Below are positions 18,629 through 63,633 of a DNA stretch of 64,000 nt, one piece after another. This DNA is from an uncultured Chloroflexia bacterium (GTDB lineage: Bacteria; Chloroflexota; Limnocylindria; Limnocylindrales; CSP1-4), in NCBI GenBank assembly GCA_963766685.1, contig CAVYBJ010000024.1, positions 101,844 through 165,843 on the forward strand, given 5' to 3'. A model generated the notes under the pieces. That model saw only the letters and a list, made by a program, of their open reading frames with translations. It did not search any database and was not told where the DNA came from. How positions within the stretch are numbered: the first letter of the stretch is position 1; every line of letters starts with the position of its first letter. Made by a program: the position numbers and the translations under genes.

Positions 18629-19655
18629 TCAGGCGGTGGCGGTGAAGCTCGCCGGCGTGGTCCAGGAGTGCAGCGTCCGGATGTACTGGGCGCGCTCGAA
18701 GGCGCCCGGGTCACCCACCTTGCCCTGGCTGGCGCTGCCGCGCAGCTGGCCGACCGATTGGTACTCGTTCTCGACCATCCAGGCGCGCATCTCCGCTTCG
18801 ACGTCGGCGATCTTGCCGGGTCCGTCCCGCAGGAGCGCGGAGGCCATGGCCACCACGTCCGCCCCGACCATGAGGGCCTTGATGGCGTCCTGGCCGCTGT
18901 GGATGCCGGAGGTGGCGGCGAGGCCGACCTCCGGGCCCAGCTGCGGGCGGAGGATGGCCGTCCAGCGCATGGGCAGGCGCAGCTCCGTGGGGTGGCTGAG
19001 GCTCACCCGCGGCACCACGGCCAGCTCGTCGAGGTCGATGTCCGGCTGGTAGAAGCGGTTGAAGAGCACGAGGCCGTTGGCACCCGCCTCCACGGCCTTG
19101 CCGGCGAAGTTCGCCAGCGCCGTGTAGAAGGGGCTGAGCTTCACGGCCAGGGGCAGGTTGACGGCCGCGCGCACGGCCGCGATGAGCTCGAGGTCTTCCT
19201 CCTCGATGTCCACCGACGTGCGCGTGCGGTCGACGCTGATGCGGTAGAGGTTGAGCTCCAGGGCGTCCGCGCCGGCGTCGGCCATGAGCCGCGCGTAGCG
19301 CACCCAGCCGCCCACCGAGTTGGCATTGAGGCTGGCGATGACCGGGATCTGCGCCTTGCGCCTTGATGCGCTCGAGGGTGCGCAGGTAGCGGTCGCCTTC
19401 GCCGATGAAGGTCTCCACCTCCGGGAAGTAGTCGAGCGCCTCGGCGAAGCCCTCGGACCCCGCCTCGAGGGAGTTCGACAGCTCGATCTCCTCGTTCTCG
19501 ATCTCCTCCTCGAAGAGCGAGGGCATGACGATGGCACCGGCCCCGGCGGCCTCGATGCGTGGCCGCCATGTCCGGGTCGCGGGTGAGCGGCGAGGCGGCC
19601 GCGATGACGGGCGATCGCAGTGGCAGCCCCAGGTATCGGGTGCTCAGATCGACGG

Positions 19656-19659: not shown

Positions 19660-23299
<3,640 letters not shown>

Positions 23300-50411: not shown

Positions 50412-50603
50412 CACTGACCTCCTGTCATGTGGCTACACGGTAGCGCGCTTCCCCTCCGGCGGCCCGGAGGCGAGCTGCCGCAGTCCTGCTGACCCTCGCT
50501 GCCGCCCCTTCCGTCGTCCCGGCTCGATCGTCCGGCGTGATCGTCCCGCCCCCGATGCCCAACGACCGACGGGGAGATCCTGGGACCGCGCGCGCTCCGG
50601 GGT

Positions 50604-53310
50604 TCAGGTCGACGGGTCGCTGCCTGACCCCGCAAGGTGCCGCAGGCGGGGCACCGCGGCGCGGGCGGCCGCCGAATCGCGCATCGGCAGGCTGGTGCGG
50701 CGGATGCCGTCGTAGGCATAGAGCGCCCCGGCCACGGCCGATGCGGTGGGCACCAGCACGGCCTCGCCCATGCCCTTGGCGCCGTAGGGCCCTTCCGGCT
50801 GGGGCTCCTCCACGAGGATGACCTCCACGGGCGGCATGCCGGCCGCAGGGATGATGCCCAGCGACTTGAGGGTGTCCGTCTCCAGTCGGGCGTCCTTCGT
50901 GACGAAGGCCTCCGAGAGCGTGTGGCCGAGGCCCATGTGCACGCCGCCCACGACCTGGCCTTCCAGCATGAGCGGGTCGAGCGCCTTGCCCACGTCGTGG
51001 GCAGCGATGACCTTCTCGATGCGGCCCTCGTCGTCCAGGATGACGACCTGCGTCGCCCAGCCATAGCCGAAGTGCGTGATGGGTTCCTCCACGTCTGCTC
51101 CGAGCTTCGTCGTCCAGTCGATGACGATGTCGGCGCGGAACTCCTGGCCGGCCAGCTCGTCCAGGGCGCAGCCGCGCGTGGCGAGCTCGTCCCGAAGCGC
51201 CGCGCAGGCCTTCAGGACCGCCTGGCCGCCCAGCATGGTGGCCCGTGACGCCGTCGTGATGCCCGTGTCCAGCTCGTGGCTGGTGTCCACGGTGACCGTG
51301 ATGCGCTCCGGGTCCAGGCCCAGCTCCGCCGCCGCCATCTGGCGGAAGACCGTGTGGGTGCCCTGCCCCATCTCCGTCCAGGAGTGGAAGAGCGTCAGGC
51401 GCCCCTGCCCCTCCGGCCGAAGCACGGCTCGGCCGTACTCCTTGAGGCCGTTGCCGATGCCGGTGTTCTTGGCCCCGCAGGCGATGCCGGCATAGCGCGC
51501 CGCGCGGTACTGGTCGCGAACGGCCAGCAGCGTGTCCTTCAGGCCCACGCCCGGGCCGAGCTTCTGCCCGGTCCCGAAGCGATCGCCCTCCGCGAGCGCG
51601 TTGCGCCAGCGGATCTCCCAGCCATCGATGCCCACCCGCTCCGCGAGGCGGTCGAGGAGCGATTCCATGGCGAAGTTGGCCTGGTTGGCGCCGAAGCCGC
51701 GCATGGCCCCGGAGGGCGGGTTGTTGGTGTAGACGGCGCGCGCCTCGACGTCCACGTTGGGCACGGCGTAGGCGCTGCAGGCGTGGCCGGCGGCGCGCTC
51801 CAGCACCTTGCCGCCGACGCTGGCGTAGGCGCCGTTGTCGCCGACCATGCGCGCCTTGACGGCCACCAGGCGCCCGTCGGCGTCGGAGGCGACCGTGTAG
51901 TCCATCCAGAAGGCGTGGCGCTTCACGGAGAAGCGCAGCGACTCCGCCCGCGAGAGCGCCAGCAGGACCGGACGGCCCGTCCGCAGCGCCAGCAGCGCGG
52001 CGTGCCCCTGGACGTTGAGGTCCTCCTTGCCGCCGAAGGCGCCGCCCGTGGCCACCTGGGTGACCAGCACCTCCTGCGGCGCCAGGCCCAGGAAGGAGGC
52101 GATCTGGCGCCGGTCCTCCCAGGCGCCCTGGCCCTGCGAGAGGACGTGCAGCCGCAGGCCGCCCGACGCCGCGCCCGGGGCCGTGCCACGGGGGGCTTCG
52201 AGACCGCCGGCCACCGCGCCCGATGACGCGCCGGGGGCGGCGCCGTCCTGCGGCACGGCCAGGCTCGACTCCGGCTCCAGGTAGGCGTGCTCGATGGAAG
52301 CCGTGGTGAAGGTGTCCGAGACGACGTGGGCCGCGCCCGCGATGGCCGCCTCCACGTCCCCACGCCTGAGCACCGACAGCGAGAGGACGTTGCCGCCCTC
52401 GTGGAGAGCCGGCGCCCCGTCGGCCATGGCCGCGAAGGGGTCGGTCAGCGGCTCCTGGACCTCGTACTCCACCTCGATGAGCGCCGCGGCCGCCCGGGCC
52501 TGGCGCCGCGTCTCGGCGGCCACGGCGGCCAGCACGTCGCCCACGTAGCGCGTCGTCTCGCCCACCGCGACGAGCTGGTTCCAATCGTCGTGGAGGAGGC
52601 CCTGGTTGCGCTTGCCGGGCACGTCGGCGGCCGTCAGCGACGGCCACCACGCCGGGCGCCGCGAGGGCGCGCGAGATGTCGATACGCGTGACGAGGGCGC
52701 GCGGGTGGTCGGAGAAGCGCAGCGCGCCGTGGAGCATGCCGGGCACCACGTGGTCGGCCACGTACTCCTGGAGCCCGAGCACCTGCTCACGCCCGCGGTA
52801 CCTGGGGGCGCGAGCGCCGATGCGGTCGCCGGCCTCCAGCACCGGCCGGGGGCCACCCTGGCGGGCAGCCGCGACCTGCTCGATGGCGTCCACGATGGAG
52901 AGGTAGCCCGTGCAGCGGCAGAGGTTGCCGGCCAGCGCCTTCGTGATGGCCTCACGCTCGGGGTGCGCCTCCTTGCGCAGCAGGGCCTCTGACTTCATGA
53001 CGATGCCCGGCGTGCAGTAGCCGCATTGGGACGCCCCGGTGGCCGTGAAGGCATCCGCCCACAGGTCGCGGATGTCCGCGTCCAGCCCCTCCAGCGTCTC
53101 CACCTGTCGGCCGGCGACGCGCTCGGCCGGCTGGGCGCAGGAGACCACGGCCCGGCCATCGACGATGACGGTGCAGGCGCCGCAGGACCCTTCCGGGGCG
53201 CAGCCGTCCTTCATGGAGCGGAGACCGAGCTGGTCGCGCAGCAGCTCGAGCAGGGACGTGCCCGGCTCGATGGTCACGGAGCGCGTGACGCCGTTGAGGT
53301 CGAAGTCCAC
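50604..53310 (-). pseudogene. molybdopterin-dependent hydroxylase with fused N-terminal 2x[2Fe-2S] domain (MOP/XdhD-type; break near 52640)
   Basis: Contains [13 protein letters not shown] and [14 protein letters not shown]. The aldehyde oxidase/xanthine dehydrogenase domains contain GGAFGGKE, GAMRGFGANQ, TASRATM and YGAKGMGE. About 900 aa. No FAD-subunit gene is nearby. Confidence 0.85.
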
Positions 53311-53517: not shown

Positions 53518-55001
<1,484 letters not shown>

Positions 55002-55005
<4 letters not shown>

Positions 55006-56441
55006 CCCTGGCCGGGCCGGCCAGCCAGCCGGCGAGCCGGCTGGTCTGCGGGGGCTGCGGCGCGGAGGCGGCTGGGCAGCCCTTCGCGGCACGCTGCCCG
55101 GCAGCTGCCGAGGGCGATGACACCGACCACGTCCTGCGACGCGTCCTGGACCCGGGAGCCATCGACCGGCACCCGGACCCGGACCCCAACCCCTTCGTGC
55201 GCTACCGCACGCGTCTCCACTCCTGGCACGTGGCACGCGCGGCCGGCTGGAGCGACGAGCGCTTCGTGGCGCTCGTGCGCGAGCTCGACGAGGCCGTCGC
55301 AGCCGTGGACGGCCACGGCTTCCGGGCCACGCCCGTGGTGCGCTCTCCCAGCCTGGACCGGCAGCTCGGCTTCAGCCCGCAGGGCGGCCTGTGGGTCAAG
55401 GACGAGACCGGCAACGTCTCCGGCTCGCACAAGGCGCGGCACCTGATGGGGGTCATGCTCGGCCTTCGCGTGGCTGAGGACCTCGGCCTGGCGGACCCCG
55501 CCGCCCCGCTGGCCATCGCCAGCTGCGGCAACGCGGCCCTGGCGGCGGCCGTCGTGGCCCGCGCGGCCCGGCGTCGCCTGCTCGTCTTCGTGCCGCCGAG
55601 CGCTGAGGCCCCGGTCGTGGAGCGCCTCCGCAGCCTGGGCGCGGAGATCGAGGTCTGCGAGCGCCAGCCGGGACAGGCCGGCGACCCCACCTACCACCGG
55701 CTCCTGGCGGCCATCGCGGCCGGCGCCGTGCCCTTCACCGTCCAGGGCAACCTCAACGGCCACACCATCGAGGGTGGCGCCACCCTCGGCTGGGAGCTCA
55801 TCGACCAGCTGCCGGACCGCGCCTCCGGCCTCGACCGACTCATCGTCCACGTCGGCGGGGGCGCCTTCGCCGCCGCACAGGCGCTGGCCTTCGAGGACGC
55901 CCACTCGGCCGGGCTCATCGACCGCCTGCCGCGAATGGACACCGTCCAGACCCAGGGCGGCTTCCCGCTGGCACGGGCCCATGCCCTCGTGCTCGACCGC
56001 CTGGGCGTGGCGGCCGGGGAGGTCGTCCCGGCCGATGCGGTGGAGGCCGGCCTGCGCGATATCGCGGCCCACCGCTCCGACTACATGTGGCCGTGGGAGA
56101 CCGAGCCCCACAGCCTCGCGCATGGCATCCTCGATGACGAGACGTACGACTGGCTGGCCGTCGTGCGTGCCATGCTGCTGACCGGCGGTCGCTGCGTCGT
56201 GGTGGACGAAGCCACGATCGAGTCCGCCAACCAGCTGGCGCGCCCGGACCTCGGCATCGATGCCGACCACACGGGCACGGCCGGCCTGGCCGGCCTCATG
56301 TCGCTCACTCGCGACGGCCTCGTCGAAGCCGATGAGACCGTGGCCGTGATCTTCAGCGGCGTCCGACGCTCGTCGGGCGCCGGCAGCACCGCCGCCGGCG
56401 ACACCGATGCCGGCGCACCAGCCCCCCACAGGGAGGAGTAA
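55002..56441 (+). CDS. fold-type-II PLP-dependent enzyme, threonine-synthase-like
   Basis: Intact. The GTG overlaps the upstream stop (GTGA 55002-55005). Contains [18 protein letters not shown] (Lys), [22 protein letters not shown] and HTGTAGLAG. Confidence 0.7.
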
Positions 56442-56448
56442 GGACCCC

Positions 56449-57405
56449 GTGAGAAGCTTCAAGGGCCGCGACATCCTGTCGCTGCGCGACATGACGCGTG
56501 ACGAGTACTTCCGCATCTTCCAGGTCGCCGACGACCTGGCGCCCATCGCGCGGGACCGACGCAACACGGACCTGCTGGCCAACAAGACGCTGCTGACGGC
56601 CTTCTACCAGCCCAGCACGCGCACGCGCCTCTCCACGGAAGCCGCCATGCATCGCCTGGGCGGCCACGTGCTGGGCTTCTCCGACGCCAAGATGACCCGC
56701 GCCGGCGACTTCTACATGGAGTCCCTCAAGGACACCTTCCACATGCTGGAGTACTACGGCGACGTCATCGCCATCCGGCACTACCAGCAGGGTGCGCCGG
56801 CAGAGGCCGCCCAGTGGTCGTCGGTGCCCGTCATCAACTGCGGTGACGGCTGGGGCGAGCATCCCACCCAGGTGCTCACGGACCTCTACACCATCTGGAA
56901 GGAGAAGGGCACGCTGGACGGCCTGACGCTCCTCCTCGTGGGCGACATGCGCATGCGCACGATGCACTCGCTGCTCTACGCCATGAGCCAGTTCGACATG
57001 AAGGCCCTCCTGGTGGGCCCCAAGGACATGGGCCTGCTGCCGGAGTTCAAGGCGGAGCTGGACGCCCGGGCCACCTTCTACGAGGAGGTCAAGGACGTCC
57101 GCGATGTCATCGACCAGGCTGACGTCATCTACATGGAGCCCGTCGTCCAGGCCGACTACACGCAGTCGCGCGTGGACTCCAAGGACGCCGAGAAGGGCCT
57201 CACGCCCAAGCAGTACGTGGTGAACCTGAAGCTCCTGGCGGAGAAGGCCAAGCGCGATGCCTTCGTGCTCCACAGCCTGCCGCGCATGGACGAGCTGACG
57301 CCCGACGTGGACGAGTCCCGCTGGGGCCGCTACTGGATCGAGGCCTTCAACGGCGTGGTCATGCGCATGAGCCTGCTCTCGCTCATCCTCGGCGCGGCCG
57401 AGTAA
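56449..57405 (+). CDS. aspartate-carbamoyltransferase-like transcarbamylase paralogue, second-substrate site altered
   Basis: Intact. The carbamoyl-phosphate motifs FYQPSTRTRLS, GEHPTQ, GDMRMRTMHS and LHSLPR are present. The ATCase TRVQ segment reads EPVVQ. Confidence 0.8.
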   Translation: MRSFKGRDILSLRDMTRDEYFRIFQVADDLAPIARDRRNTDLLANKTLLTAFYQPSTRTRLSTEAAMHRLGGHVLGFSDAKMTRAGDFYMESLKDTFHMLEYYGDVIAIRHYQQGAPAEAAQWSSVPVINCGDGWGEHPTQVLTDLYTIWKEKGTLDGLTLLLVGDMRMRTMHSLLYAMSQFDMKALLVGPKDMGLLPEFKAELDARATFYEEVKDVRDVIDQADVIYMEPVVQADYTQSRVDSKDAEKGLTPKQYVVNLKLLAEKAKRDAFVLHSLPRMDELTPDVDESRWGRYWIEAFNGVVMRMSLLSLILGAAE

Positions 57406-57518: not shown

Positions 57519-58496
57519 ATGCAGACCGGACTCCGCGGTCGAGACCTCATCGACCTGTCGGATTGGACCAACGAGGAGATCGAGACCGCGCTGGACGTGG
57601 CCTTCGACCTGAAGCGCAAGCGGGCCCTGGGCGAGGCCCACCCCTACCTGCGCGACCGCGTCCTCTCCATGCTCTTCTTCTTCTCCAGCACCCGCACGCG
57701 CGCCTCGTTCGAGGCCGGCATGGCCCAGCTGGGCGGGCACGCCATGTTCATCGAGAGCCGCACCACGCAGATCGCGCACGGTGACACGGCCACCGAGATC
57801 GGCGAGATCCTGGGTCGCTACAGCGACGGCCTCGCCATCCGCCACGTCACCTTCGGCGAGGGCAACCAGTACATCCGCGACGTGGCCGCCGCCAGCCGGG
57901 TGCCCGTGCTGAACATGCAGTGCGAGGTCTACCACCCCTTCCAGACGCTGGCCGACCTGATGACCATCATCGAGAAGAAGGGCAAGCTGCGCGGCCAGTC
58001 GATCACGGTCAGCTGGGCCTACGCGGCCAGCTACCAGAAGCCCATCAGCGTGCCGCAGTCGCTCATCCTGGCGGCCACCCGCTTCGGCATGAACGTCAAG
58101 CTCGTGCACCCGCCGGAGTTCCAGCTCATGCCGGAGATCGTGGCCCAGGCAGAGGCCAATGCCGCGCGGTCCGGCGGCTCGCTGGAGAAGCTGGACGACT
58201 TCGACGCCGGCTTCGAGGAGGCCGACGTCGTCTACGCCAAGTCCTGGGGCGCGCCGCTGCTGGGCGTCTCGGACGAGGAAGGCGCCAAGATCGCGAAGCA
58301 GTACACCGACTGGATCTCCGACGAGCGGCGCATGGCGCTCACCCGCGACGACGCCATCTGGATGCACCCGCTGCCGGCGGACCGCAACGTGGAGGTCGCG
58401 GACGCGGTCATCGACGGCCCCAAGTCGGCGGCCTTCGACGAGGCCGAGAACCGGCTCCACGCCCAGAAGGCGGTCATGGCCCTGACGATGGGCTGA
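57519..58496 (+). CDS. N-acyl-ornithine-type (AOTCase/SOTCase/YgeW-clade) carbamoyltransferase-like protein
   Basis: Intact 325 aa. GAGGAGG lies 8 nt before the ATG. Contains FFSSTRTRASFE and VYHPFQTLADL. VVYAKSWGA stands in place of DxxxSMG, and HPLPADRNVEV in place of HCLP. The tail DEAENRLHAQKAVMA matches my memory of Xanthomonas N-acetylornithine transcarbamylase. Confidence 0.75.
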   Translation: MQTGLRGRDLIDLSDWTNEEIETALDVAFDLKRKRALGEAHPYLRDRVLSMLFFFSSTRTRASFEAGMAQLGGHAMFIESRTTQIAHGDTATEIGEILGRYSDGLAIRHVTFGEGNQYIRDVAAASRVPVLNMQCEVYHPFQTLADLMTIIEKKGKLRGQSITVSWAYAASYQKPISVPQSLILAATRFGMNVKLVHPPEFQLMPEIVAQAEANAARSGGSLEKLDDFDAGFEEADVVYAKSWGAPLLGVSDEEGAKIAKQYTDWISDERRMALTRDDAIWMHPLPADRNVEVADAVIDGPKSAAFDEAENRLHAQKAVMALTMG

Positions 58497-58532: not shown

Positions 58533-58798
58533 TCAGACGGAGAGGATGGCGACGAGACGCCGACCGCCTCCAGCCTCGACCAGCACCGTCAGCTCGTCGG
58601 CATCGCCCGTCAGGATCGCCGCGGGGGTCCCGGACAGGGCCTCCGCGGCGACGATGGCATCGATCGCGTCCGCAAAGCCGGTCCGGCCGAGTCGCTCGCC
58701 CGCTTGGCGTGCGACGTCCGTCGTCGTCGGGGTGTACTGCTCGATCCAGCGCAGGGCGCGGTCCGTTCCGGAGAGCCCTGGCGCTCCGGACTGCTCAT
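58533..58798 (-). pseudogene. possible PIN-domain (VapC-like) gene fragment
   Basis: A minus-strand frame reads ..RALRWIEQYTPTTTDVARQAGERLGRTGFADAIDAIVAAEALSGTPAAILTGDADELTVLVEAGGGRRLVAILSV-stop. Only about 85 codons are present, with no clear start, and it abuts the pyrF stop. Confidence 0.3.
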
Positions 58799-59633
58799 GC
58801 CGAGCCCCCGCGCGCGGCCGTCACGGCGGCGGCCGACCGGCGGATGTCGTCCCGCAGGCTCCGGGCAGCCGCGGCCGGGTCCTCCGAGCCGAGGATGGAG
58901 CGGGAGGCATTGATGAGCAGGCCCCGCCCGCGGGCGTCGAGGCCCGCGGACACGACCGACGCCACGTCCCCGCCCTGGGCACCGACGCCCGGCACGAGGA
59001 ACGGCATGTCCGGGCAGAGCTCGCGGGCCCGGCGCAGCTCCGCGGGGTACGTGGCGCCCATGACGAGCATGCAGTTGCCGGCCTGCGTTCCAGGCGTCGC
59101 GGACGCGCGGTCGCCACGACCTCCCAGAGCGGGACGCCGTCCACGCGAGGTCCTGAAGCTCACCCGGCGCCGGGGTTGCTCGTGCGGCAGAGCACGATGG
59201 CCGCCTTGTCCGCGCGCTCCAGGAACGGCCGCAGCGCCTCCGCCCCGAGGTACGGATGCAGGGTCACGGCGTCGAACCCGAGCCCGTCGAGCAGGCCGGT
59301 CACGTAGCCGGCATTGGTGGAGTCGATGTCCGCCCGCTTGGCGTCGGCGATGGTGAAGATCGCCGGGTCCACCTCGCGCAGGTAGGCCAGCGTCTCTGCC
59401 AGCTCATCCCAGCCGGCCGCCCCGCGTGCCTCGTAGAAGGCCAGGTTGGGCTTGTAGGCCGCCACCCACGGGTGTGTCTGGTCGATGATCCAGCGACCAA
59501 AGGCCAGCTGCGGGCGGGGCTCACCCCGGAAGCGCGGAGGCAGCCGGTCGATCGCGCAGTCGAGCCCGACGCAGAGGAGCGAGTCGGTCGCCGCCATGCG
59601 AGCCTCCAGGCGCTGCAGCGCTGCGCCCCTCAC
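58795..59633 (-). pseudogene. pyrF: orotidine 5'-phosphate decarboxylase, type 2 (two breaks near 59160 and 59090)
   Basis: Contains LCVGLDC, YKPNLAFYEA, IADAKRADI, DAVTLHPYLG and VPGVGAQGG. The GTG start overlaps the pyrE stop. Confidence 0.85.
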
Positions 59634-60281
59634 GGCGTCCAGCCATGAGGATCGGCCATCCAGGTCCGCACGATCGCCGCGCCGCGGTCATCCAGGCGTC
59701 CCGACGAGACGGCCTCGCCGAGGACGGTCTCGAAGGTGGTGAGGACCACGAGCTCGACCGAGGCGTCCGCGAACGCCTGCAGCGCCTCCGGGAAGCCGTA
59801 GGTGATGATGGCCAGGCACGCGGGCACGCTGGCCCCGGCCTCGCGCAGTGCCTCGACCGCCGCAAGGCTGGAGCCGCCCGTGGTGACCATGTCCTCCACG
59901 AGCGCCACCCGGCGTCCGGCGACCTCGCCACCCTCGATGCGGCGGCCGAGCCCGTGGTCCTTGGCGGCCTTGCGCACGAAGACCGACGGCCGGCCCGGTG
60001 GCGAAGGCCAGCGCGCTGCTGTGGGGGATACCGGCGCTCTCCACTCCGGCGATCACGAGGTCGCCGTCGGCGTCCTGCCCGGGATCGGCGTGCAGCTCCG
60101 CCTCGAAGGCCTCGATGACCACCCGCCAGGGCGTGGGCTGCGAGATGAGCCGACGGTTGTCCACGTAGACCGGCGAGCGCAGCCCCGACTTGAACGTGAC
60201 CGGCGCGACGGGGGTGAGCGTGATGGTGCCGGCCTCGAGCAGCGCGCGGGCCACCTGGGCAGCACGCTGGCTCACCCGCAT
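59630..60281 (-). pseudogene. pyrE: orotate phosphoribosyltransferase (break near 59985)
   Basis: Contains FKSGLRSPVYVDNR and GVESAGIPH, plus the PRPP motif VALVEDMVTTGGS. Confidence 0.9.
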
Positions 60282-60299
60282 GGCGGGACCGTCCTGGAG

Positions 60300-61422
60300 T
60301 CACGTCACTCGCCCCTTCCGAGCCTCGCGCAGGATGAGCGCGCCGGCCAGCGGGCCCCGGAACACGAGCGCCGAATAGATCATGGCCGCCCGTGCACCGG
60401 CGTGCTGGAAGGCCAGCAGGTCCCTGCCGTCGAGGATGCCACCGCAGGCCACGATATCGAGGTCGACCCGGGCGTCTGCGACGATCGCCGAGATGCGCCG
60501 CACGGTGTCGAGCGCGAGCGGTCGGAGGCCGGCTCCGGAGAGGCCCGCGCTACCGCCATCCGTGGGCGCGGGGCGGGCCCACGTGTTGGTGGCCACGATG
60601 GCACGCACCCCGGCCGCGAGCATGCCCTGATCAGCGTCTGCAGTTGCTCATCGGAGAGGTCAGGCCCGACCTTGACCCAGAGCGGCAGGCGCGTCACCGT
60701 GGCGAGGGCGCCGCAGAGCCGCTCGGCCAGCTCGCCCGACTGCGTGCCCGCGCGGGTCGTCCTCCGTGTTGGGGCAGGAGAGGTTCAGCGTCAGCCACGC
60801 CGGACCGGCCGCAGTGTCTCGGAAGGCCTCCGCGAAGAACGCCCGCGGCCTCGCGGATCTCGCGCTCGCTCTCGGCGAGGTCAGTGAGGCCGGGGCTGAC
60901 GGCGAGGTTCACGCCCCAGGTCGGCGGCAGGGCGTCCGCGTGCGTTCGCAGATGCGCGGCCGCAGCACGTGCGCCAGGGTTGCGCAGCCCGATGCGGTTC
61001 TGCATGGACGCGCGCGGCGGGGTCCCTCCAGACCACGCGGCCCGGGTTGCCGGGCCGCGCGTGCCGCGTGTAGGAGCCGAACTCCACGGCGCCCACGAGC
61101 GCCGGCAGGACGTGCCAGCCGGCGACCACGTTGCGCCGCCGCGTCGACAGCTGCCAGCGCAGCGTCCTCGCTGGCGAAACCCTCGCCCTTGACGAGACCG
61201 GCGGCGATGACGATGGGGTGCGGCAGTCGACACCCCGCCGACATCCGTGGGCTGGTCCGGGAAGGCTGCCCGGTTGGCCAGTCTCGCCAGCGGCCCGATG
61301 AAGGCGAGGTCGTCGGCACGCCGCAGCAGGGCCAGCGTTCGATCGTGCGCGACCTGCGCGTCGCTGCGACGGATCATCGCCGCGGCAGGCCGCCAGGCGA
61401 GCTCGTAGAGGGTCAGGACCAT
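60300..61422 (-). pseudogene. pyrD: dihydroorotate dehydrogenase (class 2-like; at least 4 breaks)
   Basis: The fragments PHPIVIAAGLVKGEG, GNPGRVVWR.., NRIGLRNPG, WGVNLAVSPG, NLSCPN, LWVKVGPDL, AIVATNT and IVACGGI are spread over three frames. The ATG at 61422 overlaps the pyrC end. Confidence 0.8.
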
Positions 61423-62496
61423 CGCAGGACGTGTCCCGCGCCCTGCTGGGCGTGCACGCTCTCGCCGTCGAAGGCGACGGTCGCCGCGGATGCGCACCTC
61501 GCGCACTCGGCCTCGCACGCGCATGCCTGCGAACGGCGACCAGCCCGGGCTCGTCAGCAGGGCGCTCGTCCTCGATGACCCAGGAGGCGGCGGTGTCGAT
61601 GAGCGGTGAACGTCTCGGCCGGGGCCCGCAGGCCGAAGATGCGCTGCGGAGCGGTGGCCACCAGCTCCACGAGGCGCTCCTCCGACAGGCGACCCTCGTG
61701 CGCCGCCAACACCAGCAGGGGCAGCGTCGTCTCGAGGCCGGGCAGGCCGTAGGGCGGCGAGGCGCCCTCCTTCTCGGCCCGCGTGTGCGGCGCGTGGTCG
61801 CTCTCCACGACGTCCACGGTGCCGTCCGCGACGGCCTCCCAGAGGGCTGCCACGTCCGCGTCCGTCTTGAGCGCCGGTTTGACGAGGCCGTAGGGGCCCA
61901 GGCGCGCGGCGTCCGCTCGCCGTCAGGTAGAGGTGGTGCGGGGTCACGCCCACGCTGATGGGCAGGCCATCGCGCTTGGCCTCGCGCAGCATGGCCATCT
62001 CCGGCGCGCTGCTGACGTGGCAGAAGTGGACGCGCACGCGCAGCTCCCGCACCAGGGCCAGCAGCGCCTCCAGCGTGGCACCCTCAGCGTGGACGGCGAC
62101 GGGCCTCGCGCTGGCTGCCTGCCAGGCGACCAGGTGGCGCCTCCGCTCGGCCTGCTCGGCCAGGAGCAGGTCGCCGGTGGTCTGGTCGCAGTACATCTTG
62201 AGGCCCACGGCGCCCGGCCGCGGCGCCCGCGTACTCGCTCCCGTCGGCCTGCTGGTCGGCGCCCACGTAGAGGCCGACGTCGCAGCGCGCCCGCGCCGTG
62301 ACGCGATCCGGCCTTGGCCGCCAGCCGCGCCGCGGTGGTCGTGGTCGGCGGCGTGTTGGGCATGTCCAGCACGGCCCAGTAGCCGCCCGCCAGGGCCGCC
62401 GCCGTCTCTCGCTCGACGGTCGCCTTGTGCGACCAGTCGAGATCGCGAAGGTGCACGTGCGGATCGAGCGCGCCCGGGGATCCGCAGCAGGGTCAC
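61413..62496 (-). pseudogene. pyrC: dihydroorotase (at least 5 breaks)
   Basis: The GTG overlaps the pyrB stop. Contains [42 protein letters not shown] and VESDHAPH. Confidence 0.8.
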
Positions 62497-63550
62497 CCCG
62501 CGGCGCCCAGGACCGCGGCCAGCAGGGCCATGCGCACGTACATGCCGTTCTGCATCTGGTGGAAGTAGACGCTGCGGGGGTCGTCGTCGAGGATGGCGTG
62601 GTCGGCCTCCGTGCCCATCTCGTGCTTGCGCGGCAGCGGGTGCATGAGGATGGCGTCGTCGGGCGCGGCGGCCAGGACCTCCAGGGGTCATGATGAAGCG
62701 CGAGGCGATGGCCTCGTACTCGTCCGGGTCGGTGAAGCGCTCCTGCTGGACCCGCGTCCAGTAGATGACGTCGCTGCGGCCGATGACCTCGTCAAGCGAG
62801 TCGTGCTCGTTGACCTCGACGCCGCGCGAGCGGGCGAACTCGATGACCGAGGCCGGCGCGCGCAGGATGGTCGGGCGACACGAGTTCGAGGCGAAGGTCG
62901 GCTGCCCCGTAGATGGCCAGGAGCTTGGACAGCGAATGGACAGTGCGGCCGTTGACCAGGTCGCCCACCAGGGTGACCGTCAGACCGTCGGCGCGGCGCT
63001 TGAAGTCCATGATGGTGAAGAGGTCCAGGAGGGCCTGGGTGGGGTGCTCACCGATGCCGTCACCGCCGCTGATGACGACGGGGTGCGTGCCGAGGCGCGT
63101 GGCCAGCTGGTCGAGCGCCCGGGCAGCCTCGTAGGAGGAGCGCACCTCGGGATGGCGCAGGACCACGACATCCGCGTAGGCGCCCACCGCGCGGACGGTG
63201 TCGGCCAGGTTCTCACCCTTGTAGACGGAGGAGAAGTGCACGCCTCCGCTGGTGGCGATGACCTCGCCGCCGAGGCGCTGCATGGCCGCCTGGAAGGACA
63301 TGTCCGTCCGGGTGCTGGCCTCGTAGAAGAGCGTGGCCATGATCTTGCGCTGGCAGAGCGCCAGGACGGACTTGTCACCATCTCGGACGCGCGAGCGGAG
63401 CGAGGCCGCCAGGTCGAAGAGGCGGTCGAGATCGGGCCGAGCGAACTGCTCGACCGACACGATGTGCCGGCCCGTGAAGTCACCGCCGATGGGCCGGGGG
63501 ACGTAGTCCCGGGCTGCGGCAGGCACGGGGACATCCGGGTCGCTGGACAT
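62493..63550 (-). pseudogene. pyrB: aspartate carbamoyltransferase catalytic chain (two breaks near 62870 and 62680)
   Basis: Contains FYEASTRTDMSF, GEHPTQALLDL, GDLVNGRTVHS, VIYWTRVQQERF and LMHPLPR. It is the first gene of the pyrBCDEF string. Confidence 0.9.
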
Positions 63551-63633
63551 GACGCTCCTCCCGAGGGCACGGACGGGTGGGTTGTGGACGGCCAGGGCGA
63601 GTGTAGCCCGTGGTGACAGGACGCACCACCCGT

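Follow-up and report, generated by a model that had tools for sequence, protein, structure and literature searches.

A pseudo-aspartate carbamoyltransferase of Chloroflexota and Actinomycetota with a rebuilt aspartate pocket, associated with a probable variant gene cluster for reductive urate degradation

Introduction

Among the proteins annotated as aspartate carbamoyltransferase (ATCase), Barba et al. (2013, PMC4016543) distinguished pseudo-ATCases, which keep the STRT and HPTQ motifs but differ at H265–P268 and R230–Q232, and divided them into three subgroups. Subgroup 1 is the only one to have been characterised: its member Rxyl_2847 from Rubrobacter is a ureidoglycine carbamoyltransferase (UGTCase) that phosphorolyses allantoate, an assignment repeated by Shi et al. 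(2015), who list RxQxER as an ATCase-defining motif and SxRT, HPxQ and HxLP as the marks of the transcarbamylase superfamily. Subgroup 2 consisted of one protein, from Nocardioides sp. JS614, encoded beside a ygeW homologue, xdhABC and hyuA; its lost RxQ and its HSLP motif were already recorded in 2013, without a function being assigned. Here we describe a gene, assigned to this subgroup by its sequence, that lies at positions 56449–57405 of the forward strand of a 64,000-nucleotide stretch of DNA (the window) from an uncultured Chloroflexia bacterium (assembly GCA_963766685.1, contig CAVYBJ010000024.1, positions 101,844 to 165,843), and we propose a function for its product, referred to below as the target.

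The surroundings of the target gene and of its homologues point to the reductive uric-acid (2,8-dioxopurine) pathway, which two studies from 2025, by Li et al. and by Liu et al., worked out by experiment in E. coli and C. sporogenes. In this pathway XdhD reduces urate to 2,8-dioxopurine, YgfK or the DHO_dh-family enzyme UacX carries out the dearomatisation, and ring opening by SsnA and HyuA yields 2,3-diureidopropionate. One ureido group is then phosphorolysed by YgeW, with ATP formed via the carbamate kinase YqeA, and hydrolysis of the remaining one falls to YgeY, an M20 peptidase; from 2,3-diaminopropionate YgeX finally produces pyruvate and ammonia. A form of the pathway that uses an F420-type reductase in Chloroflexota and Actinomycetota had been noticed by Li et al.; they scored any PF00185 protein as YgeW, and a second carbamoyltransferase is not mentioned.

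Results

The target is a member of pseudo-ATCase subgroup 2

The supplementary alignment of Barba et al. gives the subgroup 2 protein as A1SH59, to which the target was 72% identical. Common to both are IYMEPVVQADYT, HSLPRMDEL, KMTRAG.FY and GDGWGEHPTQVLTDLYTIW, the signatures of A1SH59 itself being KMTRAGFYQES, GDGWGEHPTQVLTDLYTIW, DVIYMEPVVQADYT and VLHSLPRMDEL, and the two proteins grouped together in a neighbour-joining tree. The gene context is also that of subgroup 2, with a ygeW homologue and xanthine-dehydrogenase genes adjoining the target. Since A1SH59 carries the signatures of the target at such an identity, the sequences place the target in pseudo-ATCase subgroup 2. The 'GX[SC]' motif that Table 1 of the 2013 paper lists for subgroup 2 did not match the target, and the supplement shows that A1SH59 has the target's motifs. 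The motif rows of that table disagree with the supplement's own sequences and with the tree labels: per the supplement, A1SH59 has HSLP and P-V-V, Q1AS69 has HTLP and G-C-S, and Q7UHC6 has HPLA and S-I-A. Table 1 could therefore misguide the classification of pseudo-ATCases.

A full-text literature search on 'pseudo-ATCase' returned the 2013 paper only, and the sequence observation is not new, as it was published there for the Nocardioides orthologue. What is new here is the breadth of the family, a fuller list of pocket changes and the tie to the reductive uricolytic pathway of 2025.

The target gene was found to be an intact open reading frame that encodes an ATCase-fold protein of 318 amino acids from a GTG codon at 56449. 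The frame ends at 57405 and also offers an upstream ATG at 56407; however, a Shine-Dalgarno-like GGGAGGAG, read off the sequence at 56431–56438 on the forward strand, lies 10 nucleotides 5' of the GTG, and homologues of the target open with MRSF.GRD (MRSF.GRDILSL). Because of this site and these N-termini the true start is probably GTG 56449 and not ATG 56407, so that the boundaries and the length given in an earlier model-made reading of the window (the first-pass annotation) were right. The upstream gene, which encodes a pyridoxal phosphate (PLP) enzyme, has its stop codon between GGGAGGAG and the GTG (56439–56441).

Both superfamily domains were recognised by Pfam, PF02729 (OTCace_N) with E=7e-45 and PF00185 (OTCace) with E=2e-22, and together with STRT, HPTQ and HSLP they make the target a member of the transcarbamylase superfamily. 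Against TIGR00670, 'aspartate carbamoyltransferase', the target scored 242.7 bits, 6 bits above the cutoff of 236.95, and the narrow passing of this cutoff explains why its relatives carry the ATCase name in databases. It fell below NF002032 (220.7 against a cutoff of 263) and failed the remaining ATCase models by a wide margin, while the YgeW model, whose cutoff is 453, gave 39 bits. An AlphaFold2 model built from 48 aligned diverse sequences reached a pLDDT (predicted local distance difference test score) of 93 and a pTM (predicted template-modelling score) of 0.92, the sole uncertain stretch being the inserted loop at residues 236–248; an earlier model from 9 close homologues, with a pLDDT of 59.8, was discarded. 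Foldseek matched the model to ATCase catalytic chains throughout, with Pyrococcus abyssi ATCase 1ml4, bound to N-(phosphonacetyl)-L-aspartate, as the top match (TM-score 0.89). No pseudo-ATCase structure was present in the PDB by sequence and Foldseek comparison.

The carbamoyl-phosphate site is kept while the aspartate pocket is rebuilt

To assign residues, given here in the numbering of E. coli ATCase (PyrB), we used three independent alignments: HMMER against P. abyssi 1ml4, MAFFT with E. coli PyrB and others, and a set of 48 sequences. The carbamoyl-phosphate motifs STRTR (56614–56628, forward strand, as are all positions within the gene) and HPTQ (56860–56871) were conserved by motif search, by alignment and in related loci, and according to MAFFT the target keeps S52, T53, R54, T55, R56, R105, H134, Q137, R167, T168, L267, P268 and R269. 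The aspartate side of the pocket was altered throughout. HMMER paired DVIYMEPVVQ of the target with DVLYVTRIQK of 1ml4, and MAFFT gave the same register whether the partner was E. coli PyrB, the pyrB of the window or a set of 40 more distant relatives; since three independent alignments put MEPVVQ opposite (V/M)TR(I/V)QK, the exchanges R229P and Q231V are not an alignment artefact. The whole RxQxER segment is in fact exchanged, from TRVQKER to EPVVQAD, within DVIYMEPVVQADY at 57121–57159 (T228E, R229P, Q231V, K232Q, E233A and R234D), and it is followed by a 240s-loop insertion of about 6 amino acids, placed with low confidence. Elsewhere, the 80s loop is remodelled to KMTRAGDFY (56689–56715; S80R, K83F, K84Y and a 2-amino-acid insertion), Glu50 is replaced by Gln (MAFFT), HPLPR has become HSLPR through P266S (57271–57285), and in the RMR segment (56950–56958) the second Arg corresponds to R167 and is kept, while the first replaces Y165 next to a 1-amino-acid deletion.

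These results bear directly on the first-pass annotation, which had proposed that the protein retains STRTR, HPTQ, the RTMHS arginine (R167) and HxLPR but has Pro and Val in place of the aspartate-binding Arg and Gln, and is accordingly an enzyme that depends on carbamoyl phosphate but has a second substrate other than aspartate. The retained motifs, HxLPR in the form of HSLPR, and both exchanges were borne out by alignment, and none of the three alignments placed an Arg/Gln pair at the aspartate site. The loss of Arg and Gln stood, but the extent of the change had been understated, since E50, S80, K83/K84, Y165, residues 228–234, P266 and the 240s loop are affected as well. As for the substrate, the fold, the carbamoyl-phosphate ligands, the lost R229, Q231 and K84, the separate clade and the purine-catabolic context described below support the view that the target binds carbamoyl phosphate and uses a second substrate other than aspartate.

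The family is widespread and its new pocket residues are invariant

In a scan that took one genome per GTDB species, the target family was found at at least 583 loci, mostly in Chloroflexota and Actinomycetota. Carriers come from Chloroflexia/Limnocylindrales, Acidimicrobiales, Gaiellales, Thermoleophilia and Actinomycetes; one of them, Fodinibacter luteus, is in culture, and a few Phycisphaerae, Myxococcota and Verrucomicrobiota are minor carriers. Identity within the family was at least 71%, and the carbamoyl-phosphate ligands, R167 and the new pocket residues were all invariant across phyla. More than 100 database proteins of 317–318 amino acids, 75–98% identical to the target, likewise keep IYMEPVVQADYT and HSLPR. 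Among the best 80 of the at least 583 loci, HSLPR occurred in all 80, and D[VI]IYMEPVVQ[AP] and KMTRAGDFY in 75 each; the five loci without the full signatures were truncated or frame-broken. Recurrence of the signatures across these 80 loci argues that the pocket changes are due neither to chance nor to sequencing error.

The family is also tight. In a library clustered at 50% identity it was represented by two full-length sequences, after which scores dropped from about 530 to 296 bits, and canonical ATCases (TR[IV]Q.ER, K84, HPLP) formed a separate group both in the neighbour-joining tree and in the alignment, the target family making up a clade of its own. The next relatives were a large and diverse set of ATCase-like paralogues (P0128–P0198), 38–49% identical to the target, which outranked canonical ATCases in a search with the target; their 80s loop reads xxR[AS]G[DG], both K84 and RxQ are lacking, and varied residues occupy the aspartate site. 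A wider pool of little-explored ATCase-like paralogues with rebuilt aspartate pockets thereby came to light. For the target family itself, the findings mean that 'aspartate carbamoyltransferase' is a mislabel carried by genes of hundreds of genomes in Chloroflexota and Actinomycetota, the products almost certainly not using aspartate.

Related loci carry a variant reductive uricolytic cluster

To characterise the surroundings of the family, we ran tblastn against 80 related loci, using as queries the genes of the well-assembled relative L001 and of the E. coli ygeW–xdhD region, and counted matches within 10 kb on either side of the target homologue in the 52 loci that had at least 6 kb on both sides. 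A YgeW-like gene was present in 50 of the 52 loci, an XdhD-like gene in 46, an SsnA-like amidohydrolase in 40 and a carbamate kinase in 39, and two PLP enzymes, PLPa and PLPb, recurred upstream of the target homologue in 47 and 43, respectively. Less regular were a luciferase-like gene (19/52), a YgfK-like gene (13/52) and a HyuA-like gene (10/52), while YgeY and YgeX were each found in only two loci. The YgeW-like gene, which we call TC2, began no more than 300 bp past the end of the target homologue in 58 of the 67 loci that had it downstream. Precomputed Pfam contexts from four independent assemblies (L001 and L090–L092) showed the same core genes, and none of the four contained a Peptidase_M20 domain. 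The ring-reductase slot varied by lineage, being filled by a DHO_dh protein with Fe-S/pyruvate-ferredoxin oxidoreductase (PFOR) partners, by an F420-type Bac_luciferase or by a YgfK-like Pyr_redox_2/Fer4_20 protein, and the rest remained constant.

The related loci thus combine XdhD, a reductase, SsnA, a YgeW-type enzyme and carbamate kinase, as in reductive uricolytic clusters, while the scarcity of YgeY, YgeX and HyuA departs from the E. coli form and marks a variant cluster. This cluster is the Chloroflexota/Actinomycetota variant of Li et al., and we hold it very probable that the target family belongs to this variant of the reductive urate pathway.

Neighbouring genes in the window

In the window, which has a G+C content of 72%, Pfam domain annotation covered 50–64 kb and translations elsewhere were read by eye. 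An XdhD-like gene on the reverse strand is followed, divergently, by PLPa, PLPb, the target and TC2 on the forward strand, so that the target is flanked by PLP enzymes on one side and by a YgeW-like gene on the other. The XdhD-like gene (50425–53310, reverse strand), 3 kb upstream of the target, encodes a fused 2Fe-2S and molybdopterin hydroxylase that scored 670.9 bits with TIGR03311, below the cutoff, and has a frame change near 52640. PLPa (53524–55005, forward strand) is a divergent CysK-like fold-type II PLP enzyme of about 493 amino acids, identified by profile and structure-sequence comparison, and PLPb (55023–56441, forward strand) is a divergent fold-type II PLP enzyme related at a distance to threonine synthase and racemase, its start being uncertain as the reading frame opens at 54960. 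Both were distant from solved structures (E=2e-15 for the CysK-like and E=1e-14 for the threonine-synthase/racemase-like match). A promoter and terminator scan of 53–59 kb of the window detected nothing.

TC2 (57519–58496, forward strand), which starts 114 bp downstream of the target, is a compact YgeW-type carbamoyltransferase of 325 amino acids. The first-pass annotation had counted two ATCase-type proteins in the window; with TC2 there are three genes of the transcarbamylase superfamily. Over residues 13–361, nearly the full length, TC2 shared 35% identity with E. coli YgeW, and it retained the YTCase substrate residues Q98, Q160, S200, K203 and K270 as well as the Pro-rich loop, features that are borne by TC2 and not by the target; the YgeW insertions were absent. 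It scored under every NCBIfam cutoff (AOTCase 257/288, OTCase 253/306, YgeW 188/453). Since TC2 keeps the proposed YgeW substrate residues, it probably acts as YgeW in this form of the pathway, and the YgeW role would already be filled.

Besides the XdhD-like and YgeW-like genes, the window's own share of the cluster comprises a distant pair on the reverse strand, a DHO_dh-family dehydrogenase (UacX- or 'X2'-like; 18641–19647; 56% identity by tblastn) and a PFOR-like oxidoreductase of about 1200 amino acids (19737–23290; 62–65% identity by tblastn). Because homologues of both lie inside the uricolytic cluster of L001, the pair is a candidate ferredoxin-linked, UacX-like ring reductase. It is located 33 kb from the other cluster genes and fits the 'dehydrogenase X2 next to pyruvate-ferredoxin oxidoreductase' of Barba et al. 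(PMC4016543). The tblastn search of the 64-kb window gave no carbamate kinase, SsnA, HyuA, YgeY, YgeX or luciferase-like gene, a pyrC-like DHOase being the only match.

Downstream of TC2, a pyrF-pyrE-pyrD-pyrC-pyrB cluster occupies 58795–63600 on the reverse strand, with about a dozen reading-frame changes. Its pyrB, which had served the first-pass annotation as the ATCase for comparison, does contain the RxQ segment (within DVIYWTRVQQERF, 62734–62772, reverse strand) but is split over three reading frames; two of the junctions inside it are single-base insertions, and it reads STRTD, not STRTR. The pyr region was also fragmented in the closest relative, L008, with gaps of about 4% as against 1.2% in the uricolytic genes and 0.3% in TC2, and the cluster represents a second pyr operon in decay or else an artefact of long-read assembly. 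Over the 64 kb the reading frame switched about 63 times from one coding piece to the next on the same strand, gene boundaries accounting for some of these switches. Given these switches, and given that the closest relatives are Microflora Danica long-read Chloroflexia metagenome-assembled genomes, the window probably stems from a long-read assembly prone to indels.

Discussion

Proposed function of the target

The variant gene set would consist of an XdhD-like enzyme, an interchangeable ring reductase, an SsnA-like enzyme, a compact YgeW-type enzyme, the target, a carbamate kinase and two PLP enzymes. Given that YgeY is lacking, that the loci always have a second carbamoyltransferase and that carbamate kinase is a regular neighbour, we propose, with a probability of roughly 0.55, that the target is an active catabolic carbamoyltransferase that takes the place of YgeY. 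It would phosphorolyse the ureido group on which YgeY acts hydrolytically in E. coli, so that both ureido groups would yield carbamoyl phosphate and, through carbamate kinase, ATP, while two divergent PLP enzymes would replace YgeX. The physiological direction is probably the reverse one, phosphorolysis yielding carbamoyl phosphate; another pseudo-ATCase, the Rubrobacter UGTCase, provides a precedent in phosphorolysing the diureido acid allantoate.

For the substrate, our tentative suggestion is 3-amino-2-ureidopropanoate, which would make the target a 2,3-diaminopropionate N-alpha-carbamoyltransferase, its catalytic competence and its specificity alike being predicted. According to Liu et al., YgeW takes the 3-ureido group and YgeY the 2-ureido group of this very compound. 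The reaction would be 3-amino-2-ureidopropanoate + Pi -> 2,3-diaminopropionate + carbamoyl phosphate, an alpha-N-decarbamoylation equivalent to the ATCase reaction run backwards, and the compound differs from carbamoyl-aspartate solely in having -CH2-NH3+ for -CH2-COO-. The pocket appears to have undergone a matching inversion of charge, in which R229, K84 and the nearby R234 were lost and Glu228 and Asp234 were gained; this would correspond to the swap of the aspartate beta-carboxylate for a beta-ammonium group, with R167, the holder of the alpha-carboxylate, staying in place.

Several observations weigh against the replacement of YgeY by the target or against this substrate. Two related loci have both a target homologue and a YgeY-like gene, so that the two are not strictly exclusive, and carbamate kinase and SsnA are absent from the 64-kb window by tblastn. 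Most clusters have one Amidohydro_1 protein (SsnA-like), whereas the E. coli route needs SsnA and HyuA; the pathway in these organisms may differ from the E. coli route. The intermediates reported for E. coli are (R), that is D-configured, as against L-aspartate for ATCase. Finally, the regiochemistry of YgeW is disputed: Li et al. have it cut the 2-ureido group with albizziin as the product, and the order of cleavage is acknowledged to be unresolved. Should their assignment be correct, what is left would be the 3-ureido group of albizziin, a poorer fit to an ATCase-type alpha-N site.

This last point leads to the alternative that survives best, in which the pathway and the chemistry are the same but the target acts on another ureido substrate, either the 3-ureido group of albizziin or 2,3-diureidopropionate itself, with the YgeW-like neighbour doing the other step. 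The cleavage order of Li et al. would leave exactly this 3-ureido group, and the gene context suits either assignment equally. Yet ATCase and UGTCase both act on alpha-N-carbamoyl groups, and in the target R167 is kept while the ligands of the beta-carboxylate have become acidic or neutral, a pattern that would suit a beta-ammonium better than a beta-ureido leaving group. We therefore regard this alternative as rather unlikely, though it deserves to be taken seriously.

A UGTCase-type function, that is phosphorolysis of allantoate in oxidative purine catabolism as by Rubrobacter Rxyl_2847, would agree with the H(S/T)LP motif, which Shi et al. describe as characteristic of UGTCase, with the purine-related context and with the carbamate kinase neighbour in many loci. 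We nevertheless judge it improbable, and membership of the UGTCase group was rejected, because branch, pocket residues and context all differ: the target is 34% identical to Q1AS69 and stands on a different branch, UGTCase has K84 and G-C-S where the target family has Y84 and P-V-V, and the four Pfam-annotated contexts contained no uricase, hydroxyisourate (HIU) hydrolase or allantoinase, the partners being XdhD, SsnA and a YgeW-type enzyme.

The absence of residues essential for ATCase catalysis with aspartate might also indicate a pseudoenzyme, with no catalysis of its own but a structural or regulatory role alongside the carbamoyltransferase or the PLP enzymes next to it. Inactive paralogues do act as scaffolds in pyrimidine metabolism, Pseudomonas PyrC' being an example. 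What makes this very unlikely for the target is that STRT, R105, H134, Q137 and L267 of HxLP, common to all transcarbamylases, are invariant; as the substituted residues of the pocket do not vary between phyla either, the active site seems to have been re-specified rather than to have decayed.

An anabolic role in natural-product synthesis is harder still to credit. Non-canonical transcarbamylases that carbamoylate 2,3-diaminopropionate or 2,4-diaminobutyrate are known, as in the DPTCase of viomycin and zwittermicin and the DBTCase of padanamide, and CysK/ThrC-type PLP neighbours could in principle produce diaminopropionate. We rejected this reading since DPTCase and DBTCase belong to the OTCase branch and have an HDLP motif, whereas the target family occurs in at least 583 species with consistently catabolic neighbours (XdhD, SsnA, carbamate kinase and purine transporters), with no nonribosomal peptide synthetase or polyketide synthase genes in the annotated contexts. 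The database annotation, a genuine ATCase isozyme for pyrimidine synthesis, has in its favour the TIGR00670 cutoff passed by 6 bits and the name given to relatives, but with RxQxER, K84 and HP(L/G)P missing, scores below NF002032 and other ATCase cutoffs, a separate clade, a purine-catabolic context and a canonical pyrB with TRVQQER in the same window, it was rejected on motifs, phylogeny and context and its probability is negligible.

Returning to phosphorolysis by the target in place of YgeY, this proposal gives a concrete function to a group left open since 2013. If it is true, the pathway would gain two ATP per urate instead of one, a more energy-efficient variant that is widespread in soil bacteria; the alpha-N specificity of an ATCase-type enzyme would help to decide the disputed order of ureido cleavage; and, considered alongside the two PLP enzymes and the absence of HyuA, it would imply a partly different downstream route.

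Comparison with known systems

With ATCase (PyrB, EC 2.1.3.2; P. abyssi 1ml4 and E. coli) the target shares the fold (TM-score 0.89), 36–42% identity, the carbamoyl-phosphate residues, R167 and L267. It differs in that RxQxER is changed to PVVQAD, K83/K84 to F/Y with an insertion, E50 to Q and HPLP to HSLP, and in the lack of a pyr operon context. The UGTCase Rxyl_2847 resembles it as an ATCase-branch paralogue that has lost RxQ, has H(S/T)LP and serves purine catabolism beside carbamate kinase, but it is 34% identical, keeps K84, has G-C-S and stands in an oxidative context of uricase and allantoinase. In the YgeW, YqeA and YgeY system of E. coli and Clostridium, 2,3-diureidopropionate is phosphorolysed in concert with carbamate kinase, and the neighbours XdhD, SsnA, a YgeW-type enzyme and carbamate kinase are the same; however, the target is of the ATCase branch and unknotted, the YgeW-type enzyme being its neighbour, and YgeY is an unrelated M20 peptidase that hydrolyses where the target is proposed to phosphorolyse. 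Closest of all is A1SH59, which agrees with the target in STRTR, HPTQ, HSLP, MEPVVQADY, the KMTRAG.FY loop and the neighbouring ygeW homologue and xdh genes. Nothing structural separates the two; what has changed since 2013 is that subgroup 2, then known from one organism, now extends over at least 583 species and is linked to the reductive uricolytic cluster.

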